Notes under the pieces: generated by a model
Database searches by the model: none
The model's input: the letters and a program-made list of their open reading frames with translations, nothing else
What the model was told of the DNA's origin: nothing
Shown here: in pieces, positions 11,143-50,115 of the stretch
Numbering within the stretch: position 1 is the first letter of the stretch
Layout of the letters: the number at the start of each line of letters is the position of its first letter
Translations under genes and position numbers: made by a program
Assembly (NCBI GenBank): GCA_036000105.1
Contig: DASYGE010000007.1
Span: forward strand, 100,793-164,792
Length of the DNA: 64,000 nt
From: Gammaproteobacteria bacterium
Lineage (GTDB): Bacteria; Pseudomonadota; Gammaproteobacteria; Natronospirales; REEB76
Direction of reading: 5' to 3'

Positions 11143-11571
11143 CTAGCGCGCGCGCGCCTTGATGCAGGCGAGATAGGCCTGTTCGTCAGGAAGGCGATTC
11201 TCCCGTTGCGCACGCCACAGGGCTTCTCCCAGGCATTCCAGCATCGTGTGTTCCGCAGCGTGGGCATCGCCGGTGTGGATCAGCAGTGCACTGTGGGCCG
11301 CCTTGATGCCGGCCGGCCGGTCTATGGAGAGTTGCTCGCGGATGGCGATGTGCATGCCCATATGCAGGAAGGGATTGGTCTCGCCGCCTTCCGGCAGCCA
11401 ATCCTTGTCCAGGGTCTCGCCGCCGTCTTCCAGCAGCGGATGGTATTCCGGATGCAGGCGGATCACCTCGGCGATGATGGTCTCCAGCGCCGTCATGGGC
11501 AGACCGTCCTGCATCTTCTTCCAGGCGTCGAAGAACGGTTGGCGCGTGTCGCTGCGGTTAGTGGAGTACAT
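11143..11571 (-). CDS. DUF1841 family protein
   Basis: R.FFDAWKK...LE...HPEYH...NPFLHMGMHIAIREQLSIDRP...H...ECL. Confidence 0.85.
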   Translation of the reverse strand: MYSTNRSDTRQPFFDAWKKMQDGLPMTALETIIAEVIRLHPEYHPLLEDGGETLDKDWLPEGGETNPFLHMGMHIAIREQLSIDRPAGIKAAHSALLIHTGDAHAAEHTMLECLGEALWRAQRENRLPDEQAYLACIKARAR

Positions 11572-11582
11572 GGAAGAAGATT

Positions 11583-12275
11583 CTAACGCTTGCGCGCTTC
11601 GACGGGTTTCTTCTTCCCCAGGTTCAGGGGCACTTTCGGTTCCGGCTTGGTCTTCTGCCGGTACTCACATAGGTCGGCGATGATGCAGCGAGGGCATTCG
11701 GGCTTGCGGGCTTTACATACATAGCGCCCGTGCAGGATCAGCCAGTGATGGGCGTCCTGCTTGTACTCATCCGGCGTGAACTTCACCAGACGGTCTTCCA
11801 CTTCCCGTTCATCCTTACCCGGCGCGAGTCCCGTGCGGTTACCTACCCGGAAGATATGGGTGTCCACGGCGATGGTGGGTTCGCCGAAGGCGGTGTTCAG
11901 TACCACGTTGGCGGTCTTGCGACCGACTCCCGGCAATGCTTCCAGGGCCACCCGGTCCCGGGGCACTTCACCGCCGTGCTGCTCCAGCAGCATCTGGGCC
12001 GCGGCGATGATGTTCTTGGCCTTGGTGTTATAGAGGCCGATAGTCTTGATATAAGGTTTGAGTCCGGCTTCACCAAGCTTGAGCATGGCAGCGGGGGTAT
12101 TGGCCACGGGATAGAGCTTCAGCGTGGCTGCATTCACGCTCTTGTCCGTGGCCTGGGCTGAGAGGGTCACGGATACCAGGAGTTCGTAAGGCGTCTGGTA
12201 TTCCAGTTCCGTGGTGGGTTTGGGGTTCGCCGCTTTGAGCCGGCGATAGATCTCCGCGCGTTTCCCGGGGTTCAT
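11583..12275 (-). CDS. nth: Endonuclease III
   Basis: LSAQATD, HhH LPGVGRKTANVV, AVDTH, C-terminal CKARKPECPRCIIADLC Fe-S motif. Confidence 0.95.
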   Translation of the reverse strand: MNPGKRAEIYRRLKAANPKPTTELEYQTPYELLVSVTLSAQATDKSVNAATLKLYPVANTPAAMLKLGEAGLKPYIKTIGLYNTKAKNIIAAAQMLLEQHGGEVPRDRVALEALPGVGRKTANVVLNTAFGEPTIAVDTHIFRVGNRTGLAPGKDEREVEDRLVKFTPDEYKQDAHHWLILHGRYVCKARKPECPRCIIADLCEYRQKTKPEPKVPLNLGKKKPVEARKR

Positions 12276-12276
12276 A

Positions 12277-12909
12277 TCAATGTTTCCCCGGTGCAGATTG
12301 CGCACGTTTTGCCCTGACTCGGGCCACCGCTGCCGCGATCTCTGCTTTTCGGTCTGCCACGGCGCTGCGTTGTGCCGCCCGCTCGCGACGCGCTTCCCGT
12401 TCCATGCTTAGCCGTTCGCCATGCTGGTGATAGCGTCCACGTAATGCATCGGCGCGATCGGGTCCACCCTGGGGGAACTGCCAGCCTTCATAGCCTTCGG
12501 TCACACCCTGGACAGGGGTGAGGCGTATGCAATCCACGGGGCAGGGGGGCAGGCAGAGTTCGCAACCCGTGCAGAGGGCCTCCACCACCGTGTGCATGAG
12601 TTTGGGCCCGCCCAAGATGGCATCTACCGGGCAGGCACTGATGCATTTGGTGCAGCCTAAGCAGAGGGGTTCGTCGATGAAGGCCACGGTGCCGCTGATG
12701 AAGACGCCCACTTCCGGATCCAGTTCGCGGACCGTGCGCCGCAGCAAAGCTGAGAGCGCCTGCAGGGTCTCATGTCCGCCCGGCGGGCAGCGGTCTATAG
12801 CGGTCTGATCAGCGGCTATGGCTTCTGCATAAGCACGGCAATCGGGGTAGCCGCAGCGGGTGCATTGGGTCTGCGGAAGCAGGGCGTCGATTTCGTCTAC
12901 CGTGGCCAC
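12277..12909 (-). CDS. rsxB: Standalone RsxB/RnfB-like ferredoxin
   Basis: [14 protein letters not shown]...CPPGG plus two 4Fe-4S motifs; no other rnf genes in the window. Confidence 0.85.
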
Positions 12910-12921
12910 GGCAGGGGAAGC

Positions 12922-14976
12922 TTACTTGACCTTCATCCCGGGTTGCGCGCCGGCGTGGGGTTCGAGTATCCAGAGGTCCTTGCCGCCCGGCCCCGCCGCC
13001 AACACCATGCCTTCGGACATGCCGAACTTCATCTTGCGCGGCGCCAGGTTCGCCACCATCACTGTGAGCTTGCCTTCCAGTTGCTCCGGCGCATAGGCAC
13101 TCTTGATGCCGGCGAACACGTTGCGCGTGCCGTCGCCGAGGTCCAGCGTCAGTCGCAGGAGCTTGTCGGCCCCCTCCACGTGTTCCGCCTTGGCGATGCG
13201 CGCGATGCGCAGATCGATCTTGGCGAAATCCTCGTAGCTGATCTCGGCGGTGATGGGATCCATGTTCGATGCCTTCTGGGTGGTTTTCGCCAAGTCTTCC
13301 TTTGAAGCTTCGACCATAATTTGAATTGCTTTAGGGTCAACTCGAATCATTAATGGTTCGTATGGGCGTATTTTCTCAGATGGATATTCATTTAAATGCG
13401 CAAAATCTAGCTTGCCTTCTAGATTTAAGAACCGCGCGACATTATCGGCAAATTTCGGCATCACTGGCTTTAGATAGATAGTCAAAATGCGAAATGCATT
13501 GATTGCAAGACTGCAAATTTCATGCAATGCCTCTTTGGCATCCGGACGTTTCGCAAGTTCCCAGGGCTTATGTTTATCTATTGTCTGATTAATGTAGTCA
13601 GCAAGCCGCATCACCTCACGAATTACGACAGCGTATTCACGGTCCTCATAAGCACGAGATATTTCTTCTTCAGCAACTAGCAAGACTCCTGCAATTACAT
13701 CGATACTCACATCTGATTTTCCAACGTCATCTTTTGGCTTGGCCAACTTCCCATCAAAGTTTTTAGTTATGAAGCCCGCGCAGCGGCTCGCGATGTTCAC
13801 CAGCTTGCCCACCAGGTCCGAGTTAACCCGCTGCAAGAAATCTTCCAGGTTGAGATCGATGTCGTCTATGCCCGGGCCGAACTTGGCGGCGAAGTAATAG
13901 CGCAGGTATTCGGGCTCGAGGCCAGCATCCAGATAGGTCCGGCCCTTGATGAAGGTGCCCCGGGACTTGGACATCTTCTGTCCGTTCACCGTCAGGAAGC
14001 CGTGGGCGTATACCGCAGTAGGCGTGCGGAACCCTGCGCCCTCCAGCATGGCCGGCCAGAACAACGAATGGAAATAGATGATGTCCTTGCCGATGAAGTG
14101 GTACACCTCTTTGGTGCTGCCCTTCTTCCAGTAGGAATCGAAGTCCAGGTCCTTGCGCCGGGCGCAGAGGTTCTTGAAACTCGCCATGTAGCCGATGGGC
14201 GCATCCAGCCACACATAGAAATACTTGCCCGGCGCATCGGGTATCTCGAAGCCGAAGTAGGGCGCGTCGCGGGAGATGTCCCAGTCCTGCAGGCCGGCGG
14301 CGAACCACTCATCCAGCTTGCGCGTCACCGCCTCGTGCAGGTGCCCAGCACGGGTCCATTCGTGCAGCATCTTGTCGAAGTCGCCCAGCTTGAAGAAGTA
14401 ATGCTCGGATTCCCGTTCCACCGGACGGGTGCCGGAGATCACCGACACCGGGTTCTTGAGGTCCGCGGGGCTATAGGTGGCGCCGCAGTTCTCGCAGGAA
14501 TCGCCGTACTGGTCCGGCGTGGCGCAGCGCGGGCAGGTGCCCTTGATGAAACGGTCCGGCAGGAACATCTTCGCCTGCTCGTCATAGAACTGGCGGATGG
14601 TACGCACCGCGATGTGGCTCGGCTTCGCGTCCCGCAGGTTCTTGTATATCAGCGTCGCCAGCTCCCGGTTCTCCGGGGTGTGGGTGCTGTGGTAGTTATC
14701 GAAACTGATCAGGAAATCCTTGAAGTCCCGCTCGTGCTCCACCTTGACCCCGGCGATCAGTTCCTCCGGGGTGATGCCGAGTTCCCGCGCCTTCAGCATG
14801 ATGGGTGTGCCATGGGCATCGTCGGCGCACACATAGATGCAGTCCCGCCCGGCCATCTTCTGGTAGCGCACCCAGATGTCCGTGGAGATATAGCCCACCA
14901 GATGGCCCAGATGGATGGAGCCGTTGGCGTAGGGCAGGGCGTAGGTGACTAGGATGTCGCGGTCTTTCTGCGGCAT
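12922..14976 (-). CDS. metG: Methionyl-tRNA synthetase with C-terminal tRNA-binding domain
   Basis: [13 protein letters not shown], zinc knuckle, KMSKS, C-terminal Trbp111-like domain. Confidence 0.97.
13295..13770 (-). other. AT-rich in-frame patch within metG (anticodon-binding domain)
   Basis: Hand counts 23/60, 24/60, 24/60 GC (lines 13321, 13381, 13681) versus 41/60 and 37/60 in flanks (13141, 13861); A/T-ending codons dominate. Confidence 0.85.
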
Positions 14977-15110
14977 GGGCGGGTTCGATCTGCTTCTTAT
15001 GCTGCCGGTAGGCGGGCGTGGAATTATGCCATAGCCCCGCTGCCGGTCCTTGGGGTCGGAGCCGGGATGCTAGAATGCGCCGCCATCCCATCCGAACCCG
15101 CGACCATCGC

Positions 15111-16199
15111 ATGACAGCTGTTTCCCGGGACCGCGTCGAGGCGGCCCTCAAAGCCTGGACCGAACCCCACCTGGGCACGGATCTCGTGACCGCGGGGGCG
15201 GTGCGTGGCATCGAAGTGGACGGCGGCAAGGTCAGCGTCGATGTGGATCCAGGTTTCCCCCTGGGGGCCTACCGCGAAGCCTTGGCGACCGAGCTGCGCA
15301 AGCTGCTGCAGGCCGTGCCCGGTGTCGAGCGGGCCGAAGTGCGGGTCGGCAACGCCATCCTGTCCCACGCGGTGCAGCGCAACCTCACGCCGCTCCCCGG
15401 CATCAAGAACGTCATCGCCGTGGCTTCCGGCAAGGGCGGCGTGGGTAAGTCCACCGTCGCCGTGAACTTGGCGCTCGCTCTCGCCACCGATGGCGCCACT
15501 GTCGGTATCTTGGATGCAGACATCTACGGCCCGAGCCAGCCGCGCATGCTGGGACTCACAGGCCGGCCCAACAGCAAGGACGGCAAGCACATCGAGCCCA
15601 TGCAGGCTTACGGCGTGAAATGCATGTCCATCGGCTTCCTCATCGATGCCGAGACGCCCATGGTCTGGCGCGGTCCCATGGTCACCCAGGCCTTGGTGCA
15701 GCTCATCCGCGAGACCCTCTGGGGTGATCTCGATTACCTCATCGTGGACATGCCGCCGGGCACCGGCGACATCCAACTCACGCTCTCCCAGCAGGTGCCG
15801 GTCTCCGGCGCCGTGATCGTCACCACGCCCCAGGAGATCGCACTGCTGGATGCCCGCAAGGGCCTCAAGATGTTCCAGAAGGTGGAAGTGAACGTCCTCG
15901 GGGTGGTGGAGAACATGAGTACCCATGTGTGCAGCCACTGCGGCCACGAGGAACACATCTTCGGTACCGGCGGCGGCCAGAGCCTCGCCGCCCAATACCA
16001 GGTGCCCTTCCTCGGCAGCCTGCCTCTCGAACTCAGGATCCGTGAGCAGACCGATGCCGGTCGCCCCACGGTGGTATCGGAACCCGAGAGCAGCGTCGCG
16101 GCGCGCTACCGGGACATCGCACGGCGCGCCACGGCGCGCTTGGCGCTCGCCGGCAAGGATTACGCGGGGGCATTCCCCAAGATCGTCATAGAAGATTGA
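15111..16199 (+). CDS. apbC: Fe-S cluster carrier ApbC/Mrp
   Basis: ASGKGGVGKST, DADIYGPS, WRGPM, DMPPGTGD, CSHC; divergent from metG. Confidence 0.95.
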   Translation: MTAVSRDRVEAALKAWTEPHLGTDLVTAGAVRGIEVDGGKVSVDVDPGFPLGAYREALATELRKLLQAVPGVERAEVRVGNAILSHAVQRNLTPLPGIKNVIAVASGKGGVGKSTVAVNLALALATDGATVGILDADIYGPSQPRMLGLTGRPNSKDGKHIEPMQAYGVKCMSIGFLIDAETPMVWRGPMVTQALVQLIRETLWGDLDYLIVDMPPGTGDIQLTLSQQVPVSGAVIVTTPQEIALLDARKGLKMFQKVEVNVLGVVENMSTHVCSHCGHEEHIFGTGGGQSLAAQYQVPFLGSLPLELRIREQTDAGRPTVVSEPESSVAARYRDIARRATARLALAGKDYAGAFPKIVIED

Positions 16200-25446: not shown

Positions 25447-26022
25447 TCAGTTCCAGGCCCATTTCCTGCTCAAGGCCTTGAGCACGCTGTCGGAATAATC
25501 GATGCCTACCGTGGCGCCGTTGTAGCGTTGCAGCGCCTCGCGGATGTCGCCGTGGGATTTCCCCAGGTAGTACTTCAGGATGGTGCAACCCATGCGCAGG
25601 TTGGTCTTGGCGTGCACTAGGCTGTCGTCGGCCCGCCCGATGAGCTTCAGCCAGAAGGGCATGATCTGCATGAGCCCCACGGCCCCGGAATGGGAGACTG
25701 CGTAGGGATCGAACTTGCTCTCCACCTGGATGAGGGCCAGCACCAGCTGCGGCGGCAGTTGGGCGCGGTTCGCCTCTGAGTGGATCATCTTGAGGAGCTT
25801 GAGGCGTTCGTCCGGGTCCGGCACGATGTCCGCGAGGCGCAGGGACATGTCCGTGAGCCACACTTGCTGAGTGTATTTGTCCGCGAAATCGCTCTTGTCG
25901 TCTTCCGCCTGCTGCACCAGGGCGATGAGTTCGGGATCAGGCTTGGTGAACTTCTGGGCGTGGGCCGGGCCGGCGGTTATCAGGCCCACCGCCAGGAGAC
26001 CCCAGCCCAGGGCGCCACGCAT
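25447..26022 (-). CDS. SLT-domain lytic transglycosylase
   Basis: ALIQVESKF...AVGLMQIMP...ALQRYNG. Confidence 0.88.
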   Translation of the reverse strand: MRGALGWGLLAVGLITAGPAHAQKFTKPDPELIALVQQAEDDKSDFADKYTQQVWLTDMSLRLADIVPDPDERLKLLKMIHSEANRAQLPPQLVLALIQVESKFDPYAVSHSGAVGLMQIMPFWLKLIGRADDSLVHAKTNLRMGCTILKYYLGKSHGDIREALQRYNGATVGIDYSDSVLKALSRKWAWN

Positions 26023-27740
26023 CAGGTGCCGGCCGCCATCCGCTGTTTCAGGAAGCCCATGATCTCGCCTGCGGGGATGTTCTGGTTCTCCGCATCGCGC
26101 CGGCCCTTGTATTCCACGGTGCCGGCATCGAGCCCACGCTCTGACAGCACCAGGCGATGGGGGATGCCGATGAGTTCCGCATCGGCGAACATGGGGCCGG
26201 GCCGGAGGTCCCGGTCGTCCAGGAGCACGTCGTAGCCTGCCTCCTGTAACTCCTTGTAGAGCTTCTCGGCCGCGGTCTTGAGCTTCTCGGACTTCGCCAT
26301 GTTGAGGGGTAGGAGCGCGATGTCGAAGGGGGCGAGGGGTGCCGGCCAGATGATGCCGCGCTCATCGTGGTTCTGCTCGATGGCGGCTGCCACCACCCGG
26401 CTCACGCCGAGGCCGTAGCAGCCCATCTGCAGGGCCACGGCCTTGCCCTGGTGATCAAGCACCGTGGCCTTCATGGCGTCCGCGTACTTGGTGCCGAGCG
26501 AGAACACATGGCCCACTTCGATACCCCGTGCGATGCTTAAATGTCCCTTGCCGTCGGGAGAAGGATCGCCTTCCTTCACCTTGCGCAGGTCTTCTACGCG
26601 GGTGATGTGCGCATCCCGTTCCCAGTTGGCGCCGCGATAATGTTTGCCCGCCTCGTTGGCGCCGCAGACGAAGTCCGCGAGGGCCGCTGCCGCCCTATCC
26701 ACGATGATCGGCAGGTCCTTGGGCAGATGCACTGGGCCGATGAAGCCGGGTTTGCACTTGATGGCCTTCCAGATCTCGCCCTCATCCGCCAGCACCGATT
26801 CACCGGGCAGTTCCGGGAGTTTCGCTGCCTTGGCTTCGTTGATCTCATGGTCACCCCGCAGGCAGAGGGCCACCAGGCCCTTCTCGCCGCGCACGATGAT
26901 GGTCTTGACGCATTGTTTCGGATCCACCTTCAAGAAGGCCGTCAGGTCTTCGATGGTCTTCTGGCTGGGGGTGTTCACCGCTTCCAGGGACGCGGCAGGT
27001 GCAGGGCGCGAGCCGGCGGGCGCGAGGGCTTCCGCCAACTCTACGTTCGCCGCGTAGTCGGATCCGGAGGAGAAGACGATGGCGTCCTCGCCGGAATCGG
27101 CGAGCACGTGGAACTCATGGGAGGCGTTACCGCCGATGGCGCCGGTATCGGCTTTCACGGCGCGGAACTTGAGCCCCAGGCGCGTGAAGATGCGCGCATA
27201 GGTGTCGTACATGTTCTGGTATTCCCGCGCGAGGCCTTCCGGGCTCACGTCGAAGGAGTAGGCATCCTTCATGATGAATTCCCGGGCACGCATCACCCCG
27301 AAGCGCGGGCGAATCTCGTCGCGGAACTTGGTCTGGATCTGGTACACGTTGAGCGGCAACTGTTTGTAGCTCTTCAGTTCCGCCCGCGCCCAATCCGTCA
27401 CCACTTCCTCGTGGGTGGGGCCGTAGCAGTATTCCTGCTCTTTGCGATCCTTGATCTTGAGTAACTGCCCGCCGAACTTCTCCCAGCGACCGGTCTCTTC
27501 CCACAGTTCCCTCGGTTGCACCGAGGGCATGAGCATCTCCAGGGCGCCGGCGCGGTTCATCTCCTCCCGCACGATGCCCTCGACTTTAGCCAGCACCCGC
27601 AGGCCCAGCGGCGTCCAGGTATAGATACCGGCGGCGAGCTTGCGCAGCATGCCGGAGCGCAGCATGAGCTTGTGGCTCATGGTCTCCGCATCAGCGGGGG
27701 TTTCCTTGACGGTGTTGAGCGGGAAGCGGGAGGCGCGCAT
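26022..27740 (-). CDS. proS: Prolyl-tRNA synthetase with editing insertion
   Basis: [33 protein letters not shown] anticodon domain. Confidence 0.97.
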
Positions 27741-37888: not shown

Positions 37889-39037
37889 TCACTTATCCGC
37901 GGGTTTGCGGCGGCCTGCGGAGCGTACGAAGGGTTCGATGCCGGCGGCGCGCAACAGTTCCCTGTGGATGCGCGAGACGCGCTCCACCTGGCCCTTGGCC
38001 GGGAAGCGTTCGTAGAAACCTTCCGCCCGGAACTGCCGCTTCTGCTCGCCCCAGGGCGCGAGGCGCTTGGCCCAGCGCTCCGGCCGACCGTTCTCCGGGG
38101 TGGCATCCTGGGGGGCCAGATCCGCACAGACGCGGATCAAGGCCTTCAGGGTCACCGAGGTGGTGATCATGTAGGAGTTGTGGTTCCAGGTCTCGCCCCA
38201 GACGCCTTCGGCGGCCTTGAGGAAGTCACGCACGATCCGGTAGAAGCGATCCACTTCCTTCTCGTCGGCGCCGCGCCGCTCGATGGCCTTCCAGTCGTTG
38301 CTGATCCAGCGGTTGAGTTCGTTGAACAGCTCTGCCTGAAGGATCCATTTCTGGCGCTGGGCACGGCCGCCCAGGCGGTTGATGCGGTAGCGGAGCGGGC
38401 TGTCGCCCTGGGAATAGAGTTTCTCCACCACATGGGCCGCGAACTTCTTCTCCGGCGCCGCCCAGGAGACCTTCTCATACAGGTCGATCAGGTGGCTCTT
38501 GTTGATGCGGGTGGGGGTGGAGTTGATGATGACGAACATCTCCGTGGCGAAGTCTTCGCTCCGCCCATCGAAGATGATGCAGGGCACGTTGATGGTGCGG
38601 GCCTCGCCCGGCCGGTCCTTGCTATAGAAATTGAGGGCCGCGAGCCGGTGCTGGCCGTCGATGATGAGGTACTTACCCTTGGGCTCCTGCAGGTGACCCA
38701 CGCTCTCGAAACCCTGCATGGGTTCGAAGTTCAGGCGCTCGTTGGTGAAGAGCAGCACCGTGCCGGGGATGGGCGGCTGGCTGGCGGCGGTCTCATAGAA
38801 GTTCTTCAAGGCCGCCACCTTGGCGCGGCCCAGCTGGCGCTGGAAGGCCTTGTCGGAGTGCTCGATATGGCCGATGAAATCGGCGATCTCGTCACCCTCG
38901 GCAGGCTTCTCCGGGGCGATCTGCTCACCCTCGCCATAGAAGCGGCTGATGAACCTGACCTTGGCCAGCAGGTCCTCCACGGGGTAGGCCGCGAAGTAGA
39001 ACACGCCGTCTTTCTGTCTGACCTGGGTGGCAAGCAT
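37889..39037 (-). CDS. DGQHR domain-containing protein (DndB/ParB-like fold)
   Basis: FQRQL, IIDGQHRLAAL, FVIINSTPTRIN...DL motifs. Confidence 0.85.
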   Translation of the reverse strand: MLATQVRQKDGVFYFAAYPVEDLLAKVRFISRFYGEGEQIAPEKPAEGDEIADFIGHIEHSDKAFQRQLGRAKVAALKNFYETAASQPPIPGTVLLFTNERLNFEPMQGFESVGHLQEPKGKYLIIDGQHRLAALNFYSKDRPGEARTINVPCIIFDGRSEDFATEMFVIINSTPTRINKSHLIDLYEKVSWAAPEKKFAAHVVEKLYSQGDSPLRYRINRLGGRAQRQKWILQAELFNELNRWISNDWKAIERRGADEKEVDRFYRIVRDFLKAAEGVWGETWNHNSYMITTSVTLKALIRVCADLAPQDATPENGRPERWAKRLAPWGEQKRQFRAEGFYERFPAKGQVERVSRIHRELLRAAGIEPFVRSAGRRKPADK

Positions 39038-39073
39038 GGGTGGCTCCCTAAAGGGGTGGTAATCATAAACTGC

Positions 39074-39102
39074 GGCGCCCGCCGGGTACACCGGGCGGGC
39101 GC
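39074..39102. terminator. GC-rich hairpin between valS and the DGQHR gene
   Basis: GCGCCCGCC / GGCGGGCGC inverted repeat; weak U tract. Confidence 0.4.
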
Positions 39103-39122: not shown

Positions 39123-41918
39123 TTACAGCGCTGCGAGGCGGGTGGATTGCTCGCGCAGGCCCTGCAGGGTGGTCTCGAACTCCTTCACCCGCTGACGTTC
39201 CTTGTCCACCACCGCGGCCGGTGCGTTCTGCACGAAGTCCGGCTTGTCGAGCTTGGCCCCGGCCCGGGTGATCTCGCCTTCGATGCGGGCGATCTCCTTC
39301 GCGAGCCTCTCTCTCTCTGCGGCCATATCTATCAGTCCGGCCATGGGGATGAGCAGGCGGGCCTGATCCAGCACTGCGGCCGCCGAGGGGGGCGGTTGCT
39401 CGCTGGGGGCGAGGATACGGATGGACTCCAGCCGCGCCAGGAACTTGAGGTAAGGCTCGGTGCCGGTGAGAGGGATCTTGTGTCCGGCGGGCAGCTCGAT
39501 CAGGAGCGGCACGGCCCGGGAGGGGGCGACCCCCATCTGGCTGCGGATGCTGCGGATCTGCAGCACCGCCTGGCACAGCCATTCCACCTCAGCGTTGCGG
39601 CTGCGATCCGGCTGGATCAGGTCCTTGGACTGGGGGTAGGTCTGACGGGACACACTCTCGCCCTTCACCCCCAGTTTAGGTGCCACCTGCTGCCACAGCT
39701 CTTCGGTGATGAAGGGGATGATGGGGTGCAGGGCCCGGAGCAGGGCCGCCAGGGTATAGAGGAGGGTGTGGCGAGTAGAATCGGCTGCCGTCTGATCTTC
39801 GCCGTTCAGCGCCGGCTTCGAGAGTTCCACGAACCAATCGCAGAAATCGTTCCAGGTGAACTCGTAGAGGGCTTGGGCCGCGAGATCGAAGCGGTAATCC
39901 CGGTAGTGCCGGTCCAGTTCGTCACTGAGGTCGTAGAGCTTGGAGACTATCCAGTGCTCCACTGGTGTCTTGAGCGGCGGGCGCACCGTCGTGGGTTTGA
40001 AGTCCTCGCAGTTCATCAATACGAAGCGCGTGGCGTTCCACAGCTTGTTGCAGAAGTTGCGGTAACCCTCGCAGCGTTTCAGGTCGAAGTTGATGGTGCG
40101 ACTGTGGGTGGCGAGCGCTGCGAAGGTGAAGCGCAGGGCATCGGCGCCCACCGCCGGGATGCCTTCCGGGTAATCCCGGCGCACCCGTTTCTCCACCTTC
40201 TCCTTGTCTTTCGGCAGCAGCAGGGAAGCCACCGATTTCTGCACCAGAGGTTCCAGCTCGATGCCGTCGATGAGGTCCAGGGGATCGATGGTGTTGCCCT
40301 TGGACTTGGACATCTTCTGGCCTTCCGCGTCCCGCACGATGGCGTTGATGTACACCTCTTTGAAGGGTACCCGCTTGGTGAAGTACTGGGTCGCCATGAC
40401 CATGCGCGCCACCCAGAAGAAGATGATGTCGAAACCCGTGATCAACACCGAGGAGGGCAGGAAGGCGTTGAAGTCCTGCCACTCTTTTGCACGCTCTGGC
40501 GTATCGCCGGGCCAGCCCAGGGTGGAGAAGGGCCAGAGAGCCGAGCTGAACCAGGTGTCCAGCACGTCCTCGTCCTGGCGCAGCTTGCCCACGGGCGGGG
40601 TCTTGGCGTGCTTCAAGGCATCCGCCTCGTCCTCACCTACGAAGATGTTGCCCGCCTCGTCGAACCAGGCGGGTATCTGGTGGCCCCACCAGAGCTGGCG
40701 GCTCACGCACCAGTCCTGGATGTTCTCCAGCCACTGTATATAGGTGGTGTTCCAGTTCTCCGGCACGAACTTGATCTTGCCGGAACGGACTGCATCCAGT
40801 GCGGGCTCCGTGATGGCCTTGCGGCCCTTGTCGCTGGTGAGATCCAGGAACCACTGGTCCGTGAGCATGGGTTCGATGACCGCGTTCGAACGCTGGCTGA
40901 TGGGCACCATGAGCTTGTGCTTCTTGGTCTCCACGAGGAGACCGGCAGCCTCCAGGTCCGCGATCACTTTCTTGCGGGCGGCGAAACGGTCCAGGCCGCG
41001 GTAAGCGGCCGGCGCGTTCTCGTTCACCTTGGCGTCCAGGGTGAAGATGTTGATGACGGGTAGGTTGTGGCGCTTACTCAGCACCTGATCGTTGAAATCA
41101 TGGGCCGGGGTGATCTTCACCGCACCGGTGCCGAATTCCTTGTCCACGTACTCGTCGGCGATGACCGGGATCTCCCGGTCCGAGAGAGGTAATTTCAGTT
41201 TCTTGCCGACGATCTTCCGGTAGCGCTCATCCTCTGGATGCACCACCACCGCCACGTCGCCCAGCATGGTCTCGGGCCGGGTGGTGGCTACCGTGAGGCC
41301 TTCACCGCCATCGGCGGCGGGATAGCGGATCAGCCAGAGGCTGCCGTCCCGCTCTTCGTTATCCACCTCGAGATCGGAGACCGCCGTCTGCAGCACCGGG
41401 TCCCAATGCACCAGGCGCTTGCCGCGGTAGAGCAGGCCGTCGCGGTACCACTGCACGAACACACGCTTGACCGCCGCCGACAGGCCCGGGTCCATGGTGA
41501 AGCGTTCCCGCGACCAGTCCACAGAAGCGCCCAGGCGGCGCATCTGGCGGGTGATGGTGGAACCGGATTCCTCCTTCCATTCCCACACCCGTTCCACGAA
41601 CTTCTGCCGGCCGAGGTCGTGACGCGTCTTGCCGGCAGCCGCCAGCTGGTTCTCCACGATCTTCTGGGTGGCGATCCCGGCGTGGTCCGTGCCGCCTTGC
41701 CACAGCACGCGCTCGCCGCGCATGCGGTGGTAGCGGCTCAAGGTATCCATCAGGGTCTGCTGGAAGGCATGCCCCATGTGCAGGGTGCCGGTGACGTTGG
41801 GAGGCGGCAGCAGGATGCAGTAGGGCGTGCCCGTGCCTTCGGGCTTGAACCAGCCGCGGCTTTCCCAAGTCTCGTACCAGCGGTTCTCTATGCCGCGGGG
41901 TTCGTAGGCTTTCTCCAT
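39123..41918 (-). CDS. valS: Valyl-tRNA synthetase
   Basis: PPPNVTGTLHMGH, KMSKS, C-terminal coiled coil. Confidence 0.97.
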   Translation of the reverse strand: MEKAYEPRGIENRWYETWESRGWFKPEGTGTPYCILLPPPNVTGTLHMGHAFQQTLMDTLSRYHRMRGERVLWQGGTDHAGIATQKIVENQLAAAGKTRHDLGRQKFVERVWEWKEESGSTITRQMRRLGASVDWSRERFTMDPGLSAAVKRVFVQWYRDGLLYRGKRLVHWDPVLQTAVSDLEVDNEERDGSLWLIRYPAADGGEGLTVATTRPETMLGDVAVVVHPEDERYRKIVGKKLKLPLSDREIPVIADEYVDKEFGTGAVKITPAHDFNDQVLSKRHNLPVINIFTLDAKVNENAPAAYRGLDRFAARKKVIADLEAAGLLVETKKHKLMVPISQRSNAVIEPMLTDQWFLDLTSDKGRKAITEPALDAVRSGKIKFVPENWNTTYIQWLENIQDWCVSRQLWWGHQIPAWFDEAGNIFVGEDEADALKHAKTPPVGKLRQDEDVLDTWFSSALWPFSTLGWPGDTPERAKEWQDFNAFLPSSVLITGFDIIFFWVARMVMATQYFTKRVPFKEVYINAIVRDAEGQKMSKSKGNTIDPLDLIDGIELEPLVQKSVASLLLPKDKEKVEKRVRRDYPEGIPAVGADALRFTFAALATHSRTINFDLKRCEGYRNFCNKLWNATRFVLMNCEDFKPTTVRPPLKTPVEHWIVSKLYDLSDELDRHYRDYRFDLAAQALYEFTWNDFCDWFVELSKPALNGEDQTAADSTRHTLLYTLAALLRALHPIIPFITEELWQQVAPKLGVKGESVSRQTYPQSKDLIQPDRSRNAEVEWLCQAVLQIRSIRSQMGVAPSRAVPLLIELPAGHKIPLTGTEPYLKFLARLESIRILAPSEQPPPSAAAVLDQARLLIPMAGLIDMAAERERLAKEIARIEGEITRAGAKLDKPDFVQNAPAAVVDKERQRVKEFETTLQGLREQSTRLAAL

Positions 41919-44546: not shown

Positions 44547-45650
44547 TTGATACGCATCGTGGATCGCTATATCGCCAAGGAAGCGGCCCTCACCGTGGGC
44601 GCCGTCACCGGCGTGCTCATGCTCATCCTGCTCAGCAACCGCTTCGCGGTGCTGCTGGGTGATGCCGCCGCCGGCCGCCTGCCGCGCGACACCGTGTTCA
44701 CCCTGCTCGGCCTCGCGTCCATCAACTACTTCATCGTGGTGCTGCCGGTGGCCTTGTTCCTGGCTGTGATGCTGGCCTTGGGCAGGCTCTATCGGGACAG
44801 TGAGATGACCACCCTCATGGCCTGCGGTGTCGGCCCGGCTCAGATATATCGCCCGCTCATGGCCATCGCCCTGGTGCTGGCAGCCGGTCTCGCGGTGCTC
44901 TCGCTGCAGGTGGCGCCCTGGGCCCAGCGCATGAGCCACATCATTAACAACGCCGCCCAGCACAACGCCCAGGTGGGCAGTTTCGAATCCGGCAGCTTCA
45001 AAGTGGATGAGGACGGCAAGGGCGCGCTGTATGCCCAGAAAGTAAGTCAGGACGGTCGCACCTTGCAGGACGTGTTCATGCAGGGCCCCAGCGACACCCG
45101 CATGGCGGTGGTCACCGCCGCCACCGGCGAGCGCCAGGGCACCGAGCAGGATCCGGGCGGCGGCATGCTCATCCTGCATGACGGCTGGCGTTACGAAGGT
45201 GTCCCCGGCAAGGCGGATTACCGCATCGTGCGCTTTGCCGTGCATGGCATCGTCATCCAGCCCGCCAAGGCCACCTCCAGCGCGGATTACTTCGACGAAT
45301 ACCCCACCCGCGATCTCATGGCTGTGGGTGACCTGCGTGCCGTCTCGGAATTCCAGTGGCGCCTGTCGGTGCCTTTATCGGCGCTCGTGCTGGTGCTGCT
45401 GGCGGTGCCTCTCGCGCGCACCTCGCCGCGCCAGGGGCGTTACGGCAAGCTGCTCGCCGCCATCCTGGTCTATGTCATCTATTACAACCTGGGCGTGTTG
45501 GCTCGTGCCTGGTTGGAGAAAGGTGTTGCGCCCACGCAGGTCGGCATCTGGTGGGTGGATGTGGTGTTCGTGGTGGCTGTGGTGGTGTTGCTGGTGCAGC
45601 AGTATGGCTTCGAAGGCCTGTTCGGCGCGCGGATGGTGCGGCGCACATGA
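44547..45650 (+). CDS. lptF: LPS export ABC permease LptF
   Basis: DRYIAKE, GRLYRDSEM, EFQWRLS, PRQGRY; TTG start inferred. Confidence 0.92.
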   Translation: MIRIVDRYIAKEAALTVGAVTGVLMLILLSNRFAVLLGDAAAGRLPRDTVFTLLGLASINYFIVVLPVALFLAVMLALGRLYRDSEMTTLMACGVGPAQIYRPLMAIALVLAAGLAVLSLQVAPWAQRMSHIINNAAQHNAQVGSFESGSFKVDEDGKGALYAQKVSQDGRTLQDVFMQGPSDTRMAVVTAATGERQGTEQDPGGGMLILHDGWRYEGVPGKADYRIVRFAVHGIVIQPAKATSSADYFDEYPTRDLMAVGDLRAVSEFQWRLSVPLSALVLVLLAVPLARTSPRQGRYGKLLAAILVYVIYYNLGVLARAWLEKGVAPTQVGIWWVDVVFVVAVVVLLVQQYGFEGLFGARMVRRT

Positions 45651-46720
45651 AGCGCATGGACCTCTATCTCGCGCGTACCGTGGTGGTCAACGTCCTCCTG
45701 GTGTTGCTGGTACTCACCATGCTGGCCGCCATCATCAACTTCGTGAGCGAGATACACACCACTTATAACCATGAGCATTACACCCTCTGGGATGCGGCGC
45801 TCTATACCCTGATGAAGATACCGGGGGGCATCTACGAGATGTTCACCGTGGCGGTGCTCCTGGGCGCGCTCTTAGGGTTAGGCGAACTCGCAAGCCACAA
45901 TGAGCTCACGGTGCTGCGGGCGGCGGGCGTGTCTGCCGCGCGGCTCGGTGGTGCGGCGCTCTGCGGCGGCCTCTTGTTAGCCGTCGCCTGCGTGCTCATC
46001 GGCGAGTTCGTGGTGCCGGTCTCCGAGCAGCGCGCCGAAGACCGACGCGCGGAGCTGGTGGAAGCGCGGGCCAACCCCCTGGGTGCGGGGGGTGTATGGG
46101 CCAAGGACGGGAGCACCTATATCAACGTGCATTCCATGACGGCACGGGATACGGTGCATGGCGTCTATATATATGATGTGAACCCCCAGCGTGAACTGAC
46201 CATGGCCACCTTCGCCGGCATGGGCAAGTTCGACATGAAGGGCTCGCATCTCAACAACGTGCACGGCACGTCCTTGCAGCCGGATGCCCAGGGGGCGTCG
46301 GTGTTCAACCAGCGACAGATACCCTGGAACACGCTCCTGAGCCCCGAGCTGATCAGCCTGTTCGCAGTGGACACCGATAGTCTCTCTGCCCGTGGGCTCT
46401 ACCGCTACATCGATTACACCCACGCCAACCACCTGGATGATCACCGCTATGTGGCGGCATTCTGGGCACGCTTCGCCAAGCCCGTGGCCTTGCTCGCCAT
46501 GCTGCTACTGGCCATGCCTTTCGTGTTCGGACCCCTGCGTTCCTCCAGCGCCGGTCAGCGCCTGCTCATCGGCATGCTGATAGGTATAGGTTTCTACGTG
46601 TTCAACAGCATCTTCATGCAGGCGGGGATAGTCTTTGGCCTCAATCCGCTCATCAGCGCCTGGCTGCCGACACTATTGTTGGTCGCTACGGGCATCATCG
46701 CGGTACGCAGGATCAAGTAA
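45647..46720 (+). CDS. lptG: LPS export ABC permease LptG
   Basis: LGELASHNELTVLRAAG, GVWAKDG, FVFGPLRS. Confidence 0.92.
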   Translation: MKRMDLYLARTVVVNVLLVLLVLTMLAAIINFVSEIHTTYNHEHYTLWDAALYTLMKIPGGIYEMFTVAVLLGALLGLGELASHNELTVLRAAGVSAARLGGAALCGGLLLAVACVLIGEFVVPVSEQRAEDRRAELVEARANPLGAGGVWAKDGSTYINVHSMTARDTVHGVYIYDVNPQRELTMATFAGMGKFDMKGSHLNNVHGTSLQPDAQGASVFNQRQIPWNTLLSPELISLFAVDTDSLSARGLYRYIDYTHANHLDDHRYVAAFWARFAKPVALLAMLLLAMPFVFGPLRSSSAGQRLLIGMLIGIGFYVFNSIFMQAGIVFGLNPLISAWLPTLLLVATGIIAVRRIK

Positions 46721-46920: not shown

Positions 46921-48126
46921 ATGATGCACGACATTTTTACATTGGATGAATTGAAAACACCTAACTTAGAACATTTGATTCCTGCTGCTCTTGGTGGACG
47001 CAAATCAAGTAAAAAATTGATAAATAAAATTACTAATAATCAATTAGGTTCAGCCATTGATGCTCAAATCACTGACGCTTTTATAATGGTAATTAATGGA
47101 CTAGGTATTGAGAGCCGAAGAGGCAAGAAAGCGGGTTATGCCATCAAACCAAAAGATGGCAGCAAATATAACTTGGGCTCTGGTTTCAAACCTGAATTGC
47201 GCAAACCTGGGTTCCGTGACGAAATTCAAAATGAGAAGAGAACTCTTTCAATTGAAGCCAGAACGCCTGATGAGGCAAAAAGATTATTGGAAGCGGCAAG
47301 AGTCAAATACAAAGGAATGCTCGATGAAAAAACCCTTAGTATTCAAGAGAAACAAGAGTTTATAAAAGATGCGTTTCCCATTTCTTTATCTCTTGGTGGC
47401 GCTCTACAACTCCGCGCTGTTGGGAAAATTCTTTTTGAAATGTCGGCTCTAGCGCTCGGTAATGAGATTGCTTGTTCATCTGCTTTTGATCAGATTCGAA
47501 ATTGGATTCTAGAAGGGGTTACTTATAGGGATGAGTTTGTATCTGGTGCTCGCAAAGATTTAAACCCGATGGCAAACCATGATTATAGAGTATCAGTATG
47601 GGAGGGGTTACCTGTTTTAGAGAAAGCTCCATTTCAACACCGTGTTTTTGTGTTCGGTGGAAAATCACTTGGTGGCGCTTGGGGCTGCATTGAGTTTTTT
47701 GGACATATACGATTTTCGTCACTATTAAGTACCGATAGTTCGTTAATCGATTATTCTTATTGCTATCTTGTTGATTCTCTATCAGATAATAAATTAGAAC
47801 GCTCCGATTTAATTACCGCAGTAACTACTCGGCACGTTATGCAGCATGCAGTGTCTTTAAGTGATGGAAGGAAAGCGTTAGGTAATTTAATGAATGAAAT
47901 GTATAAGAAGCATATGAGTGATCTTCATAGCCAAATGATAGATTCAGCTATGCGAGATTGCATGCCCAAGTCAGGTGAGATAATTACGCAGGAGCACGTT
48001 GATAAATTTTCACGTCACTTAGCGGGGGACTTTGTAAAGCATCGTTTTCAGATTAACACTGAAAAAACCCTAACTACTGCTGATCTCGAAGCAATGATCA
48101 AGAAGCAAGATAAAGATAAATCTTAA
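46921..48126 (+). CDS. Low-GC HNH-endonuclease-like protein lacking the zinc-binding cysteines
   Basis: N-terminal EHLIPAALGG...NN.LG..ID pattern; GC 21/60 in line 47041; AGGAG RBS. Confidence 0.65.
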   Translation: MMHDIFTLDELKTPNLEHLIPAALGGRKSSKKLINKITNNQLGSAIDAQITDAFIMVINGLGIESRRGKKAGYAIKPKDGSKYNLGSGFKPELRKPGFRDEIQNEKRTLSIEARTPDEAKRLLEAARVKYKGMLDEKTLSIQEKQEFIKDAFPISLSLGGALQLRAVGKILFEMSALALGNEIACSSAFDQIRNWILEGVTYRDEFVSGARKDLNPMANHDYRVSVWEGLPVLEKAPFQHRVFVFGGKSLGGAWGCIEFFGHIRFSSLLSTDSSLIDYSYCYLVDSLSDNKLERSDLITAVTTRHVMQHAVSLSDGRKALGNLMNEMYKKHMSDLHSQMIDSAMRDCMPKSGEIITQEHVDKFSRHLAGDFVKHRFQINTEKTLTTADLEAMIKKQDKDKS

Positions 48127-48137
48127 GTTTTTGAAAA

Positions 48138-48602
48138 CTAAGAAAGGGGTTTCGCAAGTTGGAGTTCTGTGCCCGACAGCCGATCATGCCAGGTCTTGTG
48201 CTCTGCATCGAATAGCGACCACCAGAATCCCGCCCCCAAGGCTGCCCAGGAGAGGATCGCCGCGAGATAGCGGATGAGCGCCTGCTTCCAGGTCACGCTC
48301 CGGCTGTTTCCCGATTGCACGAGCTTCACCCGCCAGGCGAGCATGCCTAAGGTCTGACCGTCCCGCATCCAGAAGCCGGCGAAGAAAGCGTAACCGATGG
48401 CGAGGAGATACAGGCGGTAGAGGAGTTCGGCGAAAGGGTGATCCGGCGAGACTGCCGCGTGACTCAAGGGCATCACGAGCGCAGTGCTGATGAACCACAG
48501 AGCCAGCACGATGAGACCGTCGTAGAGCGCGGCCGCCAGCCGGCGCCACAAGTTCACGCCCGGAAGGGGATCGGAACGCTCAGGATGGTGCACGCTCTGC
48601 AT
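48138..48602 (-). CDS. RDD family membrane protein
   Basis: WRRLAAALYD, GQTLGMLAWRVKL, WHDRLSGT; alternative TTG start at 48620. Confidence 0.88.
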   Translation of the reverse strand: MQSVHHPERSDPLPGVNLWRRLAAALYDGLIVLALWFISTALVMPLSHAAVSPDHPFAELLYRLYLLAIGYAFFAGFWMRDGQTLGMLAWRVKLVQSGNSRSVTWKQALIRYLAAILSWAALGAGFWWSLFDAEHKTWHDRLSGTELQLAKPLS

Positions 48603-48622
48603 CTCGGCGGCAGGCTTCAAAA

Positions 48623-48698
48623 TGGCGCTCCCTGCGGGATTCGAACCCGCGTTTAAGCCTTGAGAGGGCTCCGTCCTAGGCCTCTAGACGAAGGGAGC
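48623..48698 (-). tRNA. tRNA-Glu (anticodon CUC)
   Basis: 76 nt GCTCCCT...GGGAGCG-CCA; anticodon arm GAGCC-CTCTCAA-GGCTT; T loop GGTTCGAATCC. Confidence 0.95.
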
Positions 48699-48780: not shown

Positions 48781-50115
48781 GTGAGCACACAGGAACCGGC
48801 CCTTATTCAACCCGTCACCATCCCCCGCGCCGAACATAATATTTCGCGGGCTAACATCTCCGAAAACGCCCTCAAGGTGCTCTACCGGCTGAAGAACGCC
48901 GGCTACGAGGCATACCTCGTGGGCGGCGGGGTGCGCGACCTGCTCCTGGGCCGTGAACCCAAGGATTTCGACGTGGCCACCAGCGCCCGCCCTGAGCAGG
49001 TGGAAGAGCAGTTCCGCAACTGCCGGCTCATAGGCCGGCGTTTCCGCCTCGCCCATGTGCGTTTCGGCGACGAGATCATCGAGGTGGCCACTTTCCGCGC
49101 CAGTGGCGCCCCGGACAACTCCGAGGAAGCGCTGCTCGCTCACGGCGAGACCGGCCGCATCCTGCGCGACAACATCTACGGCAGCGTGGCGGAAGACGCG
49201 GAGCGCCGCGACTTCAGCGTCAACGCACTGTATTACGACATCCGCGACTTCTCGGTGCAGGACTTCGTGGGCGGCCTGCCGGACCTCAAGGACGGCGTGT
49301 TGCGGCTCATCGGCGATCCCAAACTCCGCTACCGCGAGGACCCGGTGCGCATGCTGCGCGCGGTGCGCTTCGCCGTGAAGCTCGGCTTCAAGCTGCACCC
49401 GGCCACCGAGGCGCCCATCGTCCGGCTCGGACCGCTCTTGGCGGATATACCGCCGGCGCGCATGTTCGAGGAGATACTCAAGCTATTCATGTATGGCTTC
49501 GGCGAGCAGGCTTTCGAAGCCTTGCGTCATCATGGTCTCTTCGCCCAGCTCTTCCCGCGCACCGAAGCGGCGTTGGCCGTCGAGGAACAGGGCTTCCCCC
49601 AGACTTTCATCGCCAAGGCGCTCGCCAACACCGACAGCCGTGTGCAGCAGGACCTGCCGGTGACCCCGGCATTCCTCTTCGCCGCATTGCTCTGGGAGCC
49701 GGTGCGCAGGATGGCTCGTGAACTGGAAGCTCAGGGCGTGCACCCCAGCGATGCTCTGCGTCGCGCCTCCGACGAGATCGTGAGCGAGCAAGTGCAGCGT
49801 GTCGCCTTGCCGCGCCGCTTCTCCACGCCCATGACCGAGATCTTCCAGATGCAGCCGCGCTTCGGCCAACGCAACGGCAAGCGCCCGCAGCGCCTGCTTA
49901 CCCATCCGCGTTTCCGTGCGGCTTACGATTTCCTGGTGCTGCGCGCCCAGGCGGGTGAAGCTGAGCAGGAGCTGGCGGACTGGTGGACGGAGTTGCAGGC
50001 CGGCAATCCCGACGCGCCCCAACCGAGTTCGAGCGCACCGAGACGCCGCCGCCGGCGTCGGCGCGGCGGGGGCGGGGGCGGGGGCGGTTCCGGAGCGGGG
50101 CAGGAGCCCGCCTGA
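48781..50115 (+). CDS. pcnB: Poly(A) polymerase I
   Basis: LVGGGVRDLL...PKDFDVAT, LIGRRFRLAHV, RRDFSVNAL, HPRFRAAYDF, basic tail. Confidence 0.95.
   Translation: MSTQEPALIQPVTIPRAEHNISRANISENALKVLYRLKNAGYEAYLVGGGVRDLLLGREPKDFDVATSARPEQVEEQFRNCRLIGRRFRLAHVRFGDEIIEVATFRASGAPDNSEEALLAHGETGRILRDNIYGSVAEDAERRDFSVNALYYDIRDFSVQDFVGGLPDLKDGVLRLIGDPKLRYREDPVRMLRAVRFAVKLGFKLHPATEAPIVRLGPLLADIPPARMFEEILKLFMYGFGEQAFEALRHHGLFAQLFPRTEAALAVEEQGFPQTFIAKALANTDSRVQQDLPVTPAFLFAALLWEPVRRMARELEAQGVHPSDALRRASDEIVSEQVQRVALPRRFSTPMTEIFQMQPRFGQRNGKRPQRLLTHPRFRAAYDFLVLRAQAGEAEQELADWWTELQAGNPDAPQPSSSAPRRRRRRRRGGGGGGGGSGAGQEPA

Follow-up and report, generated by a model that had tools for sequence, protein, structure and literature searches.

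Aminoacyl-tRNA synthetases (aaRSs) are textbook examples of conserved core genes that are mostly inherited vertically, and to our knowledge the transfers known for them involve whole genes. Second, acquired aaRS copies give inhibitor resistance, as with MetRS2 in Streptococcus pneumoniae and IleRS2 and mupirocin, while the mosaic pbp2x and penA genes of Streptococcus and Neisseria are selected by beta-lactams, have known donors and consist of blocks that are ~15–25% divergent at the nucleotide level. Here we describe metG, the gene for methionine--tRNA ligase (MetRS), in a 64,000-nucleotide (nt) stretch of DNA (the window) from a gammaproteobacterium of metagenomic origin (GCA_036000105.1, contig DASYGE010000007.1), in which a patch of AT-rich codons coincides with the anticodon-binding domain. 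The patch quite probably arose by homologous recombination within an essential gene, with the domain contributed by a related soil gammaproteobacterium.

Homeoalleles have been described for TyrRS, ThrRS, SerRS and LeuRS (Andam, Gogarten and co-workers; PMC3191353, PMC3436685) and are divergent forms with the same function, present one per genome and replaced via recombination in conserved flanks while synteny is kept (PMC3191353). The locus described here resembles them in the patchy distribution of divergent forms among close relatives, in the single metG of the window and in the conservation of the gene neighbourhood. Homeoalleles, however, are whole genes in two forms, whereas the unit in metG is one domain with ~19 classes, the recombination flanks are conserved motifs of the same protein, and most classes are compositionally foreign to the host gene. 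The types of IleRS are the subject of a further account (PMC4861432). As with MetRS2 and IleRS2, horizontal transfer acts here on an aaRS, plausibly in escape from an antagonist, but those are extra whole genes with changes at the catalytic site, whereas the single-copy metG is altered in its anticodon-binding domain only. With pbp2x and penA the locus shares sharp-bordered divergent blocks in an essential gene, near-identical flanks, recurrence, recombination with relatives and a functional product; unlike theirs, the metG blocks match a structural domain in extent, have saturated synonymous sites and are aberrant in composition. Foreign DNA in a high-GC genome is classically recognised by its low GC, as in genomic islands, but unlike these the patch lies in frame inside a core gene, replaces homologous sequence and adds no genes. 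A full-text search of the literature yielded no account of the anticodon domain of MetRS being recombined.

A divergent AT-rich domain inside an intact metG

The metG gene occupies positions 12922–14976 of the window on the minus strand as an intact open reading frame (ORF) of 684 codons. The patch covers codons 403–564 (13285–13770, with an unambiguous core at 13318–13770, minus strand), with a GC content of 0.41 and a GC content at third codon positions (GC3) of 0.35. Per 100 nt, GC is 0.36–0.47 at ~13300–13770 compared to 0.56–0.71 on either side, and the value for 13290–13769 (0.41) has a z of -4.8 when set against all 480-nt windows in the 64 kb, where the one other equally low-GC region is a separate one-gene island at ~46.6–48.3 kb. 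In steps of 20 codons, GC3 falls from 0.75–0.95 to 0.20–0.45 at codons ~403–558 and then climbs back, for overall values of ~0.87 in the flanks and 0.35 over codons 403–560. First codon positions (GC1, 0.57 vs 0.65) and amino acids (FYMINK fraction, 0.32 vs 0.25) are shifted in the same direction. The sliding GC and GC3 profiles confirm the AT-rich stretch that an earlier note, made from the sequence alone, had placed inside metG at 13295–13770, coordinates that are correct to within ~10–25 nt for the composition patch; the codon strings that it quoted (ATA ACT AAA AAC TTT, at 13770–13756, and TTA AAT GAA TAT) are present, as is the quoted peptide.

The patch starts at codon 403, immediately past the RCAGF motif (398–402), with a razor-sharp upstream switch in composition after ...GGCTTCAT (13771), and ends within residues 554–564, just ahead of a predicted disordered linker (561–590), so that its placement right after RCAGF and before the C-terminal linker is borne out by the alignments. 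It matches Pfam Anticodon_1 (E 2.6e-7) and aligns with residues ~400–545 of E. coli MetRS, the helical-bundle anticodon-binding domain. In an AlphaFold2 model (mean predicted local distance difference test, pLDDT, of 78.8), the first helix of the domain spans residues 377–407, with the patch starting in its last turn; the helices within the patch (425–558) are modelled at pLDDT >90 as a normal helical bundle, and the loop at 408–424, which carries a class-specific insertion of ~8–10 residues missing in the standard form of the domain, is poorly ordered. The patch is the anticodon-binding domain minus most of its first helix. The proposal that this domain had been replaced consequently holds for a swap at the scale of a domain and fails for the domain as a whole, the first helix being mostly native in the model.

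The history of the patch differs from that of the rest of metG, as judged by distance methods (identity matrices, contrasts in synonymous divergence and triplet tests). Compared to the window protein, the nearest full-length relative, P0002, is 97% identical in the N-terminal part (residues 1–402), 45% in the patch (403–560) and 93% in the C-terminal part (561–684); the corresponding values are 94%, 39% and 94% for P0003, and 92%, 40% and 84% for P0007. Amino acid identity of the patch to the nearest full-length relative is 43–46%, and only residues ~403–612 differ, the rest of the window MetRS being 93–97% identical to P0002. At the DNA level, the contig that encodes P0002 (L081, from a forest-soil assembly) is 85–95% identical to the window over 6 kb but ~50% identical in 13318–13773, with breaks at 13771 and 13285–13317, and its homologous segment has a normal GC content (GC3 0.82–0.90). 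Estimates of synonymous and nonsynonymous divergence (dS and dN) and of the proportion of synonymous differences (pS), all by the Nei-Gojobori method, give a dS of 0.66 and a dN of 0.024 between the window and L081 in the flanks, compared to a pS of 0.87 (saturated) and a dN of 0.61 in the patch; in a control pair with standard domains, L081 and L001, the flanks have a dS of 0.59 and the domain one of 0.66. Site patterns in triplets made up of the window, L081 and one further sequence are not the same in the flank as in the patch (Fisher p, 1e-10 to 1e-24). No comparable drop in GC3 occurs in this region of metG in 80 related species genomes. The closest relatives are without the AT-rich segment and the relationships of patch and flanks are discordant, in keeping with the replacement by recombination that had been suggested.

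As the window derives from a metagenome and the junctions fall in conserved motifs, where k-mers are possibly shared, an assembler could have joined an AT-rich segment of another organism to metG, the alternative raised in the earlier note. The junctions were checked in independent per-run Logan assemblies of soil metagenomes from different samples and studies. A contig of 2528 nt from run X1 spans 13021–15000 with 0 mismatches and a flat depth of 14.3 across the whole gene, and contigs from X2 (13424–14098) and X3 (13211–13379) cross the upstream and the downstream junction, respectively, likewise with 0 mismatches. The stretch is present in many soil-metagenome runs, and the patch in five at a word share of at least 0.21. 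With both junctions crossed by independently assembled contigs from several runs at even depth, with the reading frame and every functional motif intact, with the same architecture in eight other lineages (including NCBI assembly contigs of 49 kb and 242 kb) and with ValRS from the same type of data free of such mosaics, a chimera is scarcely credible.

Two further kinds of element were considered and rejected. A mobile genomic island or insertion would not fit a patch that replaces homologous codons in frame and has no meaningful repeats around it and no flanking integrase or tRNA, the sole tRNA of the window lying at 48623–48698. The target of a diversity-generating retroelement was rejected in the absence of a template copy in the 64 kb and because the differences between domain classes hit all bases and include indels.

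Extent and probable source of the exchanged tract

Contigs of a strain still closer to the window are present in runs X5, X6, X7 and X9 and allow the differing tract to be delimited. A 917-nt contig from X9 is 98.6% identical to the window over 13769–13985 (3 mismatches in 217 nt), then carries, where the window has 468 nt (13300–13769), a GC-rich and unrelated sequence of 444 nt, has 22 mismatches in the 119 nt of 13140–13258 and returns to 2 mismatches in the 95 nt of 13045–13139; below 13140, the closest strain is again 98% identical. The start of its 444-nt stretch translates as FIETHFEGQLAD, which is the standard form of the domain as found in P0003 and P0004, and contigs of three other strains all break from the window at 13769. 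Relative to the closest strain, the differing tract thus runs over ~13140–13769 (~630 nt) and comprises the AT-rich domain together with ~160 nt of GC-rich sequence (GC3 ~0.85). This GC-rich part (13140–13317, minus strand) takes in the end of the patch, the linker and the opening strands of the C-terminal domain, is ~15–18% diverged from the closest strain, and at four of four differing positions the protein of the close strain agrees with P0002 (LDIG) while the window deviates (LDLG).

We infer that homologous recombination made use of conserved motifs on both sides of the domain. The ~630-nt tract of metG would have given way to its counterpart from a related soil gammaproteobacterium, with a crossover in each of two highly conserved stretches, one on either side of the anticodon-binding domain. 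On the upstream side (5', in gene orientation), alignment to L081 and the codon alignment place the putative crossover zone in a conserved coding stretch at 13771–13816 (minus strand), and two of the few mismatches between the window and its closest strain lie at 13803 and 13816; downstream, the crossover would fall in MVEASKE..NMDPI and the start of the C-terminal domain. The metG of the donor would already have borne a very divergent, AT-rich class of the domain, and the incoming domain would have been a working anticodon-binding module of MetRS.

As the exchanged tract includes ~160 nt of GC-rich linker and C-terminal domain, the immediate donor was probably a GC-rich relative from the same clade that already carried the AT-rich domain, rather than a low-GC organism. 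The low-GC donor proposed in the earlier note is therefore probably not the proximate event. A direct import from an unsampled low-GC organism would have one end in a conserved stretch and the other at a microhomology at GGCTTCAT, in the manner of homology-facilitated illegitimate recombination. The razor-sharp upstream switch would suit such an event, the AT shift of GC1 and of the amino acid composition suggests long evolution under AT pressure, and a second AT-rich foreign gene at 46921–48126 indicates that low-GC DNA reaches this genome. Besides the GC-rich part of the tract, what speaks against it is that the nearest relatives of the patch are AT-rich domains within GC-rich metG genes of the same clade, and that searches of word indexes, protein libraries, metagenomes and viral sequences, all of limited sensitivity, gave no closer low-GC relative; on balance, direct import is unlikely.

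The individual searches differed in reach. The patch alone, run against a word index of 5.8 billion proteins, returned three fragments at 47–49% identity and missed the source protein itself, so that a near-full-length query is apparently needed. A phmmer search against 1.84 billion representatives of 50% clusters gave best matches of 45–57% over partial stretches, the top representatives (Casimicrobiaceae, Methyloversatilis and Neisseria fragments) being uninformative; in such a library mosaics cluster with the relatives of their backbone, and domain classes or a hidden donor could escape. Metagenome contigs searched for a donor of the patch reached at most 42%, and viral contigs yielded nothing. 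For the other domain classes, no outside donor above 63% was found in a biased local sequence set, which makes for a weak test.

Recurrent exchange of the domain among related MetRSs

The replacement in the window is not an isolated case: the event itself stands, and what had been described as a single replacement belongs to a clade-wide swapping that is specific to MetRS. The proteins with the most window-like patches all have the loop insertion and possess backbones 80–88% identical to that of the window. The patch of P0032 is 73% identical to that of the window (88% in the N-terminal part), followed by P0012 (62% and 80%), P0005, P0006, P0017 and P0021 (56–57% and 80–83%), P0019 and P0022 (53–54% and 80–84%) and P0010 (51% and 83%). 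An AT-rich domain is found at the same place, with GC3 of 0.25–0.55 compared to 0.7–0.9 in the flanks, in L083, L084, L089, L091, L092, L093 and L095, that of L095 belonging to a quite different class (33% identity to the window patch), while L082 has a mild GC3 dip only. Over the genes sampled, a clearly AT-rich domain is present in nine and a mild dip in a tenth. GC1 is AT-shifted as well, and so is the amino acid composition of most of the non-standard classes. In L094 (2501–4540, encoding P0011) a divergent class, 50% identical to the standard class, sits on a backbone that is 92–95% identical, and its GC3 dips slightly (0.72–0.80 vs 0.9), so that a domain can diverge without becoming markedly AT-rich and the two properties are not tied strictly together.

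Pairs of proteins that are close over the rest of MetRS diverge sharply within the domain: pairs among P0009, P0011 and P0032 share 92–95% identity outside the domain and 41–50% inside, P0022 and P0023 share 95% and 44%, and P0006 and P0026 share 94% and 36%. Of the 310 protein pairs with at least 90% identity over the rest of the protein, 34% fall below 60% in this domain (minimum, 31%), and no other 150-residue region of MetRS falls below 82%. By single-linkage clustering, 52 proteins of the clade, in two backbone groups, possess ~19 domain classes, whereas 67 outgroup proteins, in 18 backbone groups, possess one. The upstream switch points vary by lineage (codons ~391–403), which points to independent events. 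Within classes, the domain has a dN/dS of 0.08–0.2, indicating purifying selection. The synthetase controls in the window, ValRS (39123–41918, minus strand) and ProRS (proS; 26022–27740, minus strand), have flat GC3 profiles (0.72–0.92), and in 120 relatives, from the same type of data, the anticodon domain of ValRS never falls below 68% in pairs with at least 88% identity outside it. The phenomenon is thus specific to MetRS, and on these two controls it was rejected as a feature common to the anticodon domains of aaRSs or to assemblies of metagenomes.

Transfer of the domain alone is seen most directly in L092 and L093, where dS is 0.58 in the flanks and 0.04 in the patch and nucleotide identity is 95–100% over codons 400–571 compared to ~87% outside. 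A near-identical patch in diverged flanks identifies a recent exchange of the domain only, between diverged lineages. The same pair proves transfer against an origin in place, whether by accelerated evolution or local hypermutation or through an embedded AT-rich functional DNA or RNA element kept by selection. The recurrence of AT-richness at the same place in many lineages and the lack of a donor would be expected under such an origin. The within-class dN/dS shows no sign of rapid adaptive change, however, and the sharp borders and the indel of ~24 nt (468 vs 444 nt) also argue against change in place; as for an embedded element, promoter and terminator motifs are not in excess in the patch, it has no Rfam family, its opposite strand lacks a long ORF, and neither repeats nor a template copy accompany it. 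An origin in place is accordingly very improbable.

Under homologous recombination with a related donor, the domain would come in numerous old cassette classes, which differ greatly from one another, are mostly AT-rich and are shuffled among closely related genomes while the rest of metG and its neighbourhood evolve vertically. A rival that concerns the origin of the AT-richness, and is compatible with the recombination event, holds that the classes are ancient, endemic to the clade and kept by balancing or frequency-dependent selection, none of them an import, with the window carrying or having recently received one. Bacterial mutation is AT-biased and recombining genes are richer in GC3; the endemic classes, too divergent to recombine, would have escaped GC-biased gene conversion or weak selection on GC3 and drifted to an AT-biased equilibrium. 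Each class is nearest to other classes of the same clade, with nothing outside above ~63%, and synonymous sites are saturated between classes at a flank dS of only 0.5–1.0. The purifying selection within classes, the AT-shifted amino acid composition of most non-standard classes and a continuum of GC3 values (0.35, 0.4, 0.5, 0.6, 0.76 and 0.87) are in line with this rival, and L083 and L089 keep a GC3 of ~0.4 even though their ratio of patch dN to flank dN (1.7) is about that of vertically inherited domains (1.8). Against it, the needed effect, a GC3 gap of ~50 points, is far above the reported effects of GC-biased gene conversion, translational codon selection would be expected in the patch no less than in the remainder of metG, and some divergent classes are GC-rich (L094 at 0.72–0.80, and the standard class). 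Endemic classes, and with them the proposed drift to an AT-biased equilibrium, are a possible but rather doubtful source of the composition.

Several points weigh against an exchange with a related soil gammaproteobacterium. The sequence of the close strain was rebuilt from a table of mismatches and not read directly, nucleotide identity to L081 in 13140–13300 is near equal for the two strains (83.6% vs 85.5%), and the polarity of the exchange rests on four amino acid positions and on the rarity of the domain class in the window. An identifiable donor was not found, the best relative of the patch being P0032 at 73% (protein) and the other searches giving 62% or less, so that the donor lineage is inferred and not observed. 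The relatives are all metagenome-derived and most were not individually checked for chimerism. Cassettes confined to GC-rich hosts should also have lost their AT-richness by simple amelioration: a two-rate calculation predicts a GC3 above 0.7 after a flank dS of ~0.8, compared to the observed 0.35–0.55, and the cassettes are mutually saturated at synonymous sites while the host genes have a dS of only 0.5–1.0. Polarised substitutions between L092 and L093 (13 differences in all) are too few to show direction. Either a low-GC reservoir may repeatedly feed the clade, or the AT-richness may be maintained in place, through escape of rare, recombination-isolated classes from GC-biased conversion or weak selection or through direct selection.

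Function, gene context and significance

The encoded protein is an E. coli-type MetRS (MetRS1) with a zinc knuckle and a C-terminal Trbp111-like tRNA-binding domain. Its motifs include HLGH at 22, KMSKS at 334, a CPRC/CENC zinc knuckle at 148/161 and KPW at 470–472, and in a 40-sequence alignment the class I signatures HIGH (as HLGH) and KMSKS are invariant or nearly so. Matches to structures in the PDB run end to end (7ulz, E 1.4e-232; 1qqt, E 3e-219; 6wq6, over residues 6–683), and Pfam assigns PF09334 and PF01588. The native catalytic part (13771–14976, minus strand) comprises the Rossmann fold, the CP region with the zinc knuckle, the KMSKS domain and the first helix of the anticodon-binding domain, with N394 and R398, at 97% amino acid identity to P0002 and a GC3 of 0.75–0.95. 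The native remainder of the C-terminal tRNA-binding domain (Trbp111/EMAP-like; PF01588) lies at 12925–13139 (minus strand) with 98% nucleotide identity to the closest strain, and residues 577–683 match PDB 1pyb and 8vtz. Neither at the DNA nor at the protein level is there a second copy of the patch or domain within the 64-kb window.

A swap of the domain had been thought capable of changing tRNA specificity, and the residues at the contact positions make this unlikely. The E. coli positions N391, R395, N452, D456 and W461 are those we take to read the CAU anticodon. By alignment to 1qqt, the equivalents of N391 and R395 are N394 and R398 in the native flank, and those of N452, D456 and P460-W461 are N463, D467 and P471-W472 inside the patch, with the same residues; N463, P471 and W472 do not vary over the 40 aligned sequences, which cover most classes, and the conservation of D467 there is 90% or more. 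With these contact residues conserved, an altered tRNA identity is unlikely, and, judging from the preserved motifs and the purifying selection within classes, tRNA-Met and tRNA-fMet are most likely still substrates of the enzyme.

The metG gene is flanked by a divergently transcribed gene for an apbC/mrp-type Fe-S carrier (15018–16199, plus strand) and, on the other side, by ORFs for an rnfB-like protein (12277–12909), nth (11583–12305) and a DUF1841 protein (11143–11571). The order apbC, metG, rnfB-like, nth, DUF1841 is common to the window, L081, L089, L094 and L095, with either type of domain. In L083 (2237–2748) and L091 (2051–2562), both carriers of an AT-rich domain, a Phd/YefM-YoeB toxin-antitoxin pair lies between metG and the rnfB-like gene; the window is without it. 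Upstream of apbC-metG in L082 (1–1632), a dCTP deaminase (DCD) region has matches to the intein-splicing family PF14890 in two adjacent genes, which suggests that dcd is intein-containing or split in this lineage, and 4–6 kb downstream of metG in L095 (12320–14055; GCA_049591455.1) there is a bufferin-type set with BufA1, an MbnB/TglH-like protein and HvfC_N. The nearest named relatives of MetRS are from Ectothiorhodospira, Thiohalophilus and Thiogranum, and those of ValRS are different (Dokdonella, Rudaea and Rhodanobacteraceae).

Elsewhere in the window, the one-gene island consists of a single ORF of 401 amino acids (46921–48126, plus strand) with a GC content of ~0.39 in a genome of 0.63. 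It lies between an lptG-like gene (45356–46720) and an RDD-family gene (48138–48620), the latter followed by tRNA-Glu(CTC) at 48623–48698, has a sub-threshold match to HNH_5 (E 1e-4, residues 15–54) and no PADLOC family, and is probably a recently acquired orphan nuclease-like gene, to judge from its composition and this match. Beside valS, an ORF of 400 amino acids (37889–39091, minus strand) possesses a DndB-like domain (DNA-sulfur modification-associated; E 1e-9), and an ORF of 435 amino acids that overlaps it on the other strand has no family match. A poly(A) polymerase gene (pcnB-like; 48781–50115, plus strand) ends in an unusual low-complexity terminal tail, PRRRRRRRRGGGGGGGGSGAGQEPA.

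The exchange recurs, is restricted to MetRS and, in at least one case, has recently moved the domain alone between diverged lineages, which means that one domain of a single-copy, essential synthetase acts as a cassette open to exchange, an unusual state for a core gene of translation. Phylogenies of metG or marker-gene binning in this group would be misled if the domain were included. The persistence of AT-rich segments in GC-rich genes with unsaturated flanks is hard to square with simple amelioration and offers a test case for how bacteria maintain GC content, through selection, biased gene conversion or repeated import. In nature, MetRS has a functionally modular anticodon-binding domain, a property useful for synthetase engineering.

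A factor specific to MetRS in these soil bacteria appears to favour diversity of this surface, which makes the group a place to seek MetRS-directed toxins, phage factors and inhibitors, and an antagonist that binds the surface is a candidate driver of the diversity. As a speculation that we hold to be improbable as a whole, the classes may form a long-lived, multi-allelic cassette polymorphism, maintained as an antagonist docking on the domain (a toxin, bacteriocin, phage protein or natural product) exerts frequency-dependent selection and shuffled by recombination at the conserved motifs on either side, with the rare classes being AT-rich as they are cut off from recombination-linked GC enrichment. 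If true, this would be the first polymorphism resembling that of an immune locus in a core translation enzyme and would provide a natural test of the origin of GC-richness in bacteria.

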